Source: Escherichia coli
GTDB lineage: Bacteria > Pseudomonadota > Gammaproteobacteria > Enterobacterales > Enterobacteriaceae
DNA length: 64,000 nt
NCBI RefSeq assembly: GCF_013315695.1
Contig: NZ_CP054353.1
Strand: one strand, 5' to 3'
Under the pieces are notes generated by a model that was not told the origin of the DNA, searched no databases, and was given only the letters and a program-made list of their open reading frames with translations. Both the position numbers and the translations under genes were made by a program. How positions within the stretch are numbered: the first letter of the stretch is position 1; each line of letters opens with the position of its first letter. Positions 41,535 to 42,320 of the stretch are shown here, in pieces.

Positions 41535-41543
41535 TTGGTATCG
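41535..41543. repeat. IS1 target-site duplication, left copy (TTGGTATCG)
   Basis: Identical 9-mer immediately flanks both ends of the element. Confidence 0.85.
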
Positions 41544-41598
41544 GGTGATGCTGCCAACTTACTGATTTAGTGTATGATGGTGTTTTTGAGGTGCTCCA

Positions 41599-41874
41599 GT
41601 GGCTTCTGTTTCTATCAGCTGTCCCTCCTGTTCAGCTACTGACGGGGTGGTGCGTAACGGCAAAAGCACCGCCGGACATCAGCGCTATCTCTGCTCTCAC
41701 TGCCGTAAAACATGGCAACTGCAGTTCACTTACACCGCTTCTCAACCCGGTACGCACCAGAAAATCATTGATATGGCCATGAATGGCGTTGGATGCCGGG
41801 CAACAGCCCGCATTATGGGCGTTGGCCTCAACACGATTTTACGTCACTTAAAAAACTCAGGCCGCAGTCGGTAA
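41599..41874 (+). CDS. insA: IS1 protein InsA
   Basis: 91-aa [35 protein letters not shown] (zinc-finger DNA-binding), at offset 56 of the element. Confidence 0.95.
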
Positions 41875-42296
41875 CCTCGCGCATACAGCCGGGCAGTGAC
41901 GTCATCGTCTGCGCGGAAATGGACGAACAGTGGGGCTATGTCGGGGCTAAATCGCGCCAGCGCTGGCTGTTTTACGCGTATGACAGGCTCCGGAAGACGG
42001 TTGTTGCGCACGTATTCGGTGAACGCACTATGGCGACGCTGGGGCGTCTTATGAGCCTGCTGTCACCCTTTGACGTGGTGATATGGATGACGGATGGCTG
42101 GCCGCTGTATGAATCCCGCCTGAAGGGAAAGCTGCACGTAATCAGCAAGCGATATACGCAGCGAATTGAGCGGCATAACCTGAATCTGAGGCAGCACCTG
42201 GCACGGCTGGGACGGAAGTCGCTGTCGTTCTCAAAATCGGTGGAGCTGCATGACAAAGTCATCGGGCATTATCTGAACATAAAACACTATCAATAA
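41793..42296 (+). CDS. insB: IS1 InsB reading frame (expressed as InsAB' transposase by -1 frameshift)
   Basis: 167-aa ORF in the -1 frame overlapping the insA 3' end; A6C slippery site within the overlap. Confidence 0.9.
41848..41856 (+). other. IS1 programmed -1 ribosomal frameshift motif (TTAAAAAAC)
   Basis: A6C run at the insA/insB overlap, as known for IS1. Confidence 0.75.
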
Positions 42297-42311
42297 GTTG
42301 GAGTCATTACC

Positions 42312-42320
42312 TTGGTATCG
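42312..42320. repeat. IS1 target-site duplication, right copy (TTGGTATCG)
   Basis: Identical to the 9-mer at 41535..41543. Confidence 0.85.

Follow-up and report, generated by a model that had tools for sequence, protein, structure and literature searches.

The insertion sequence IS1 is known as a 768-bp element with an A6C frameshift motif and a 232-amino acid product, InsAB' (PMC12428005). Its copy IS1A in Escherichia coli K-12 MG1655 (NC_000913.3 19796-20563; insA1/insB1) is among the described elements closest in kind to the one reported here, and is like it in length, terminal repeats and the insA/A6C/insB' layout. The K-12 genome also provides the reference for the interrupted gene, yfdF (b2345), which encodes 352 amino acids. 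In E. coli and Shigella, yfdF is rich in adenine and thymine (AT-rich) and silenced by H-NS, and in Shigella it is activated by MxiE (PMC9769918). Here, we analyzed a 64,000-nucleotide stretch of E. coli DNA (contig NZ_CP054353.1), referred to below as the window, in which a complete IS1 lies inside yfdF. We conclude that the locus almost certainly records a simple and recent transposition of an intact IS1A-type element into codons 89-92 of chromosomal yfdF, in an IS1-rich lineage associated with humans.

The element occupies positions 41544-42311 (+ strand), in the same orientation as yfdF. Direct reading and computation agree on these limits, which bear out the original prediction of a length of exactly 768 bp. 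With the duplicated target on either side, the structure spans 786 bp (41535-42320 inclusive). The original prediction also called the terminal inverted repeats intact. They are indeed canonical IS1 ends, but not perfect repeats of each other. The left terminal inverted repeat (IRL; 23 bp, 41544-41566, +) is GGTGATGCTGCCAACTTACTGAT, and the right one (IRR; 23 bp, 42289-42311, -), written as the reverse complement, is GGTAATGACTCCAACTTATTGAT; the two agree at 18 of 23 positions. This is the usual imperfect IS1 pair, because the element as a whole departs from K-12 IS1A at position 444 alone. Nothing else in the 64-kb window matches the terminal-repeat pattern (0 matches expected by chance), and this is therefore the only IS1 that the window contains. 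An Rfam scan of the whole window returned no match within or near the element.

Both IS1 genes and the A6C site were identified, as foreseen. The gene insA (41599-41874, +) starts with GTG and encodes a 91-amino acid repressor with a zinc ribbon and a helix-turn-helix that binds the terminal repeats. InsA matches HTH_Tnp_IS1 (PF03811; 1.3e-21) and Zn_ribbon_InsA (PF12759; 4.7e-31). The insB' frame (41793-42296, +), which lies at -1 relative to insA, is open and is translated only as part of the InsAB' fusion; InsB' matches DDE_Tnp_IS1 (PF03400) at 2.3e-78 across the entire profile (positions 1-131 of 131). All three Pfam scores are far above the gathering cut-offs. The slippery site AAAAAAC (41850-41856, +) is the place of the programmed -1 ribosomal frameshift (PMC12428005). 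A -1 shift within this run of A residues yields an open 232-amino acid InsAB' transposase carrying the DDE catalytic domain. With NF033558, the NCBIfam equivalog model for IS1 transposases, the fusion obtains 245 bits, where the cut-off is 100. RefSeq names the product 'IS1-like element IS1A family transposase' (WP_103215986.1) and annotates it with 'programmed frameshift'. A consensus scan also predicted a promoter-like site (CTGCCA, a 16-nt spacer and TATGAT; 41551-41578, +). It overlaps IRL, at the location of the weak IS1 promoter described previously (PMC12428005).

The element is nearly identical to K-12 IS1A, with which it shares 767 of 768 bases. The single difference, G here versus T in K-12 at position 444, gives Arg rather than Ser at residue 65 of InsB'; the genomic location of the two copies also differs. 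At 100% identity over 768 bp, the same sequence occurs in many plasmid copies from Escherichia, Klebsiella, Salmonella and Citrobacter, from which only the insertion site distinguishes it. It is likewise 100% identical to a second IS1 in E. coli AF3 and to an IS1 located upstream of yfdF in EEC_W5. The exact variant is the common circulating form. The element thus agrees with IS1 in its length, its imperfect ends of about 23 bp, its gene layout, its A6C fusion, a duplication in the 8-9 bp range and its near-identity to a known isoform. It is not some other IS1 member of a different length, and realignment revealed no fault in either its ends or its duplication.

Directly outside the element we identified two copies of the 9-bp sequence TTGGTATCG, one on the left (41535-41543) and one on the right (42312-42320). 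The two are identical at 9 of 9 positions, the match extends no further in either direction, and the probability of a 9-bp match by chance at two fixed positions is ~4e-6. The perfect target-site duplication that had been predicted was confirmed by an empty site. Removal of IS1 and one repeat from the window (41270-41543 joined to 42321-43294) restores an open reading frame (ORF) of 1248 nt encoding 415 amino acids, and this ORF has 0 mismatches over 1248 nt to the uninterrupted coding sequence of E. coli MS 21-1 (WP_000937807.1), in which TTGGTATCG occurs once. The repeat is a true target-site duplication, because the MS 21-1 empty site equals the window minus IS1 and one copy. We considered a link between the hexamer GTATCG inside the duplication and the MxiE box (consensus GTATCGTTTTTTTAnAG), and dismissed the resemblance as coincidental; what resembles a box at yfdF is found upstream of the gene, at 41197-41213, and the strain is not Shigella.

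The same comparison bears on the possibility that the IS1 is the scar of a rearrangement mediated by IS1 (through deletion or inversion, as a resolved cointegrate, or as one end of a composite transposon), so that its flanks were not originally adjacent. Such an event is known at this locus. In E. coli C 236-04A, an IS1-adjacent deletion has taken away the end of fadL together with the first half of yfdF. There, an IS1B-type IS1 is bordered immediately on one side by the 3' part of fadL and on the other, without a duplication, by nt 658 of yfdF. In the window, on the contrary, the same 9-bp repeat stands on both flanks, the joined flanks reproduce a known gene without a mismatch over its 1248 nt and with the same neighbors, and the 64 kb hold no second IS1. 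A rearrangement junction is in effect refuted by the exact empty site, and we assign it only a minute probability.

The interrupted gene was identified by position and by similarity. The order fadL, yfdF, mlaA (reverse strand), yfdC is found in the genome from which the window derives, in AF3, in MS 21-1 and in K-12; the place of the gene between fadL and mlaA identifies the locus as that of yfdF. The restored protein aligns with K-12 YfdF in two segments (222/273 identities, 81%, and 113/146, 77%) that span the whole of the K-12 protein. It differs from K-12 YfdF in length, 415 versus 352 amino acids, because the window allele carries one extra internal repeat unit of 65 amino acids. The disrupted gene is therefore the orthologue of yfdF, present as a long allele, in agreement with the gene name first proposed for it. 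RefSeq labels the 415-amino acid allele only as 'hypothetical protein'.

IS1 cuts the YfdF reading frame short. The 5' fragment (41270-41543, +) comprises codons 1-91 and the first base of codon 92. It reads through 91 native codons and one altered codon into a stop codon that the left end of IS1 supplies (ATC GGG TGA; TGA at 41546-41548), giving a 92-amino acid ORF, and the expected split after about codon 91 is thus borne out. The 3' fragment (42321-43294, +) runs from the rest of codon 92 to the native stop. RefSeq annotates both as pseudogene fragments, the first without its C-terminus and the second without its N-terminus. YfdF is cut to 91 native residues, and the other 324 codons are left without a promoter and a start. 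With the protein truncated and its distal part so deprived, yfdF is therefore a pseudogene in this lineage.

The extra length of the allele takes the form of a diverged tandem duplication of 195 nt (65 amino acids). Unit 1 consists of 41498-41543 plus 42321-42469, and unit 2 of 42470-42664; the units are 75-88% identical in the best stretches of DNA and share 24 of 65 residues, and K-12 YfdF has a single unit. The IS1 target TTGGTATCG falls inside unit 1, and the paralogous site of unit 2 reads GTGGTATCT. YfdF has no match in Pfam, NCBIfam, PADLOC or the PDB sequences, and its only family match is phrog_29678 in PHROGs, a family of unknown function. It is an orphan gene, and the absence of family matches says nothing against orthology. 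Its guanine-plus-cytosine (GC) content is 34%, versus 49% for the window. About 57 bp upstream of the yfdF start, at 41197-41213, is the sequence TGAGCGTTTTTTGATAG, which agrees with the MxiE-box consensus of Shigella in 13 of its 17 positions. It presumably corresponds, in E. coli, to the functional box that has been reported for yfdF in Shigella (PMC9769918).

The original prediction had suggested a relatively recent transposition, arguing from the intact state of the element and its duplication, and had proposed a search for an uninterrupted allele in closely related genomes. Genome comparison now supports this on independent grounds. Across 5,426 complete RefSeq E. coli genomes, the exact junction (240 nt of left junction plus the whole interrupted gene, as a single alignment at 100%) was found in only two, MSB1_4I (rectal swab, Australia) and AF3 (blood culture, UK). 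The window shows 4 mismatches to MSB1_4I in 50 kb. The site is uninterrupted in 4,276 of the 5,426 genomes, with alleles 90-100% identical. The next-closest genomes, MS 21-1, AF14 and OZ546911, are shorter by exactly 777 bp over the 24.9 kb surrounding the site, a difference equal to IS1 and one 9-bp repeat together, and these relatives thus carry the empty site. The insertion is, accordingly, phylogenetically restricted.

Misassembly could in principle place a repeated element where it does not belong, and a genome with ~40 IS1 copies holds repeats liable to confuse short-read assemblers. The junctions here, however, are the same in two complete genomes sequenced independently in different countries, each as one uninterrupted alignment, and a misassembly would not make a precise 9-bp target duplication. 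We consider an IS1 copy misplaced into yfdF by an assembler to be exceedingly improbable.

Small numbers of single-nucleotide polymorphisms (SNPs) separate the genomes in question. MS 21-1 and AF14 each differ from the window by 13 SNPs over 24,124 bp, and 4 of these SNPs are common to both, which sets the carriers MSB1_4I and AF3 apart as a separate subclade. Over 24.9 kb, only 3 SNPs and one extra IS1 distinguish AF3 from the window. These relationships also bear on whether the insertion could be ancestral to the clade of MS 21-1, AF14 and MSB1_4I, the relatives having regained the empty site when IS1 was precisely excised. An event of this kind, between the 9-bp repeats, would in principle yield the empty site that is observed, though nothing supports it specifically, and precise excision of IS1 is rare. 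Against it stands the empty state in 4,276 of the surveyed genomes, with its alleles of 90-100% identity. The carriers, moreover, are 3 SNPs apart and share 4 SNPs relative to both empty relatives, so that parsimony favors one gain on the branch that both share, and neither the duplication nor the element has decayed. We therefore hold ancestral insertion followed by excision to be very improbable, and favor a single recent gain.

The extra IS1 of AF3 is 100% identical to the yfdF copy and has its own 9-bp duplication, CGAATTATC. It sits at the equivalent of window position 34287, in a 25%-GC region between sixA and a fimbrial operon; the corresponding site in the window, 34279-34287, is empty. 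We counted 19 IS1-matching places on the MS 21-1 chromosome, at least 38-39 on those of AF14 and OZ546911 and at least 38-40 on those of the two carriers, whereas the species median is about 10-11 per chromosome. In terms of copies, the lineage ranges from about 18 to at least 39 IS1. These comparisons indicate that the yfdF insertion is recent and lineage-restricted and that IS1 is proliferating in this human-associated lineage. The recency follows from the occurrence of the junction in two of 5,426 genomes, from the empty sites of the nearest relatives and from an identical second copy that is polymorphic between the carriers. Since the copy is intact and identical copies are polymorphic among near-identical genomes, the IS1 described here is probably still active.

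The step-by-step events follow established IS1 biology. InsA, acting as a repressor, binds the terminal repeats and holds down the IS1 promoter (PMC12428005). A rare -1 ribosomal slip at AAAAAAC joins insA to insB' and produces the 232-amino acid DDE transposase InsAB'. This protein binds the 23-bp ends and inserts them at a target whose strands are cut 9 bp apart; when the gaps are repaired, the TTGGTATCG duplication results. IS1 favors AT-rich targets, according to the older IS1 literature. H-NS is reported as a host factor of IS1 transposition by Shiga et al. 2001, as that work is cited in PMC12428005. The AT-richness of yfdF or its binding by H-NS may thus have guided the choice of target. 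Our reading of the locus has limits, all of them limits of the data. The survey covered complete RefSeq E. coli genomes, the higher IS1 copy numbers are lower bounds, and the presumed transposition competence of the element is read from its intactness and from polymorphism among near-identical genomes. We detected no feature in the sequence that contradicts recent transposition.

Other IS1 insertions at this locus show that it has been struck repeatedly. In 14 other genomes that were mapped, IS1 lies in the gene at nt 157, 158, 171, 577, 705, 970, 1069 or 1196 of the long allele, in its flanks at -288, -106, +1260 or +1330, and, in one more case, in fadL. A separate duplication of 8 or 9 bp accompanies each of them, and the isoforms involved are 93-100% identical to the yfdF copy described here. 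Although they share its target, these insertions in fadL-yfdF-mlaA differ from it in position and duplication and often in isoform, they occur in unrelated strains, and none uses the TTGGTATCG site. They are independent events.

To gauge target preference we used control queries in which the same IS1 was placed synthetically, at the same offset, in segments of equal length from fadJ (50% GC) and emrY (40% GC). Genomes with an IS1 within joining distance numbered 15 for yfdF, 4 for emrY and 28 for fadJ; these counts are of same-strand pieces, include clonal duplicates and do not constitute a statistical test. Among the matches listed for fadJ (12 of 28), all 12 place the IS1 beyond sixA and outside fadJ, at several offsets within the sixA-fimbrial spacer, whose GC content is 25%. 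The counts fit AT-targeting by IS1. The spacer seems to attract IS1 more strongly than yfdF does.

Recurrent insertion raises the question of selection. Loss of yfdF could have been favored, or IS1 could break up an H-NS-silenced, AT-rich tract and so alter expression of its neighbors; either way the insertion would not be neutral. Consistent with this, IS1 copies of different isoforms have entered yfdF in other strains, at no fewer than nine separate positions within the gene, and the gene is silenced by H-NS (PMC9769918). In addition, bgl is a documented case of an H-NS-silenced locus that insertion sequences activate. The recurrence, however, is predicted by the AT preference of IS1 alone, and the 25%-GC sixA-fimbrial spacer is struck even more, in 28 genomes. 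Each yfdF insertion is limited to one or a few genomes, with no sign of a sweep. As for mlaA, it is convergent, and a strong hairpin resembling a terminator (43433-43464) stands between it and yfdF. A yfdF knockout in K-12 had no phenotype in the one assay that we found (bioRxiv 10.1101/2025.12.01.691526). We regard a non-neutral insertion as improbable, and loss of yfdF in this lineage was probably neutral.

The reported IS1 and IS5 insertions at the bgl operon resemble the present one in that an insertion sequence has entered AT-rich, H-NS-bound DNA. They sit in a regulatory region and switch the operon on, whereas the yfdF insertion lies in coding sequence and destroys the gene. An activating effect is not needed to explain the yfdF insertion. 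The hairpin at 43433-43464, between the convergent yfdF and mlaA, has a 14-bp stem flanked by runs of A and T. It resembles a bidirectional intrinsic terminator, and as such would insulate mlaA from transcription passing through IS1 and yfdF.

A broader proposal would tie several of these observations together. Both yfdF and the 25%-GC sixA-fimbrial spacer 7 kb away might be true landing pads for IS1, attractive beyond their base composition and perhaps by way of H-NS as a host factor. A burst of IS1 might be under way in this rare human-associated lineage, with copy number approximately doubling between genomes ~0.05% apart, and the repeated losses of yfdF might then have been selected rather than left to chance. 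We think this combination doubtful as a whole.

Several other features of the window are of note. A two-gene Septu anti-phage defense system is encoded at 25531-27532 (+), between a fimbrial adhesin gene and smrB. It consists of a PtuA ATPase of 452 amino acids (PADLOC E = 4e-168) and a PtuB of 219 amino acids (E = 4e-95), which RefSeq labels only 'AAA family ATPase' and 'hypothetical protein'. A tRNA-Arg (CCT) gene at 45531-45605 (+) is followed directly by dsdC and dsdXA, and no prophage is present there. In K-12, the CPS-53/KpLE1 prophage remnant is integrated at this tRNA (argW). The Rfam scan identified naRNA4 (RF02564), a nucleoid-associated, REP-derived RNA, at 7265-7336 (-), with 65.1 bits where the gathering score is 59.5. 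Apart from tRNA, no other RNA family gave a match in the window.

The insertion is already annotated in RefSeq. It is a textbook IS1 insertion and nothing new in kind. It brings no new mechanism, no new family and no open question, and has little import beyond bookkeeping. It may serve as a lineage marker, in that polymerase chain reaction across 41400-42450 should give a product of 1.05 kb in the MSB1_4I/AF3 subclade versus 0.27 kb in its closest relatives. For the biology of the lineage, the insertion appears as one visible product of an active IS1 expansion. For the gene, it is one more piece of evidence that the orphan yfdF, which H-NS silences and which in Shigella is under the control of the virulence regulator MxiE, is dispensable in commensal and extraintestinal E. 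coli.
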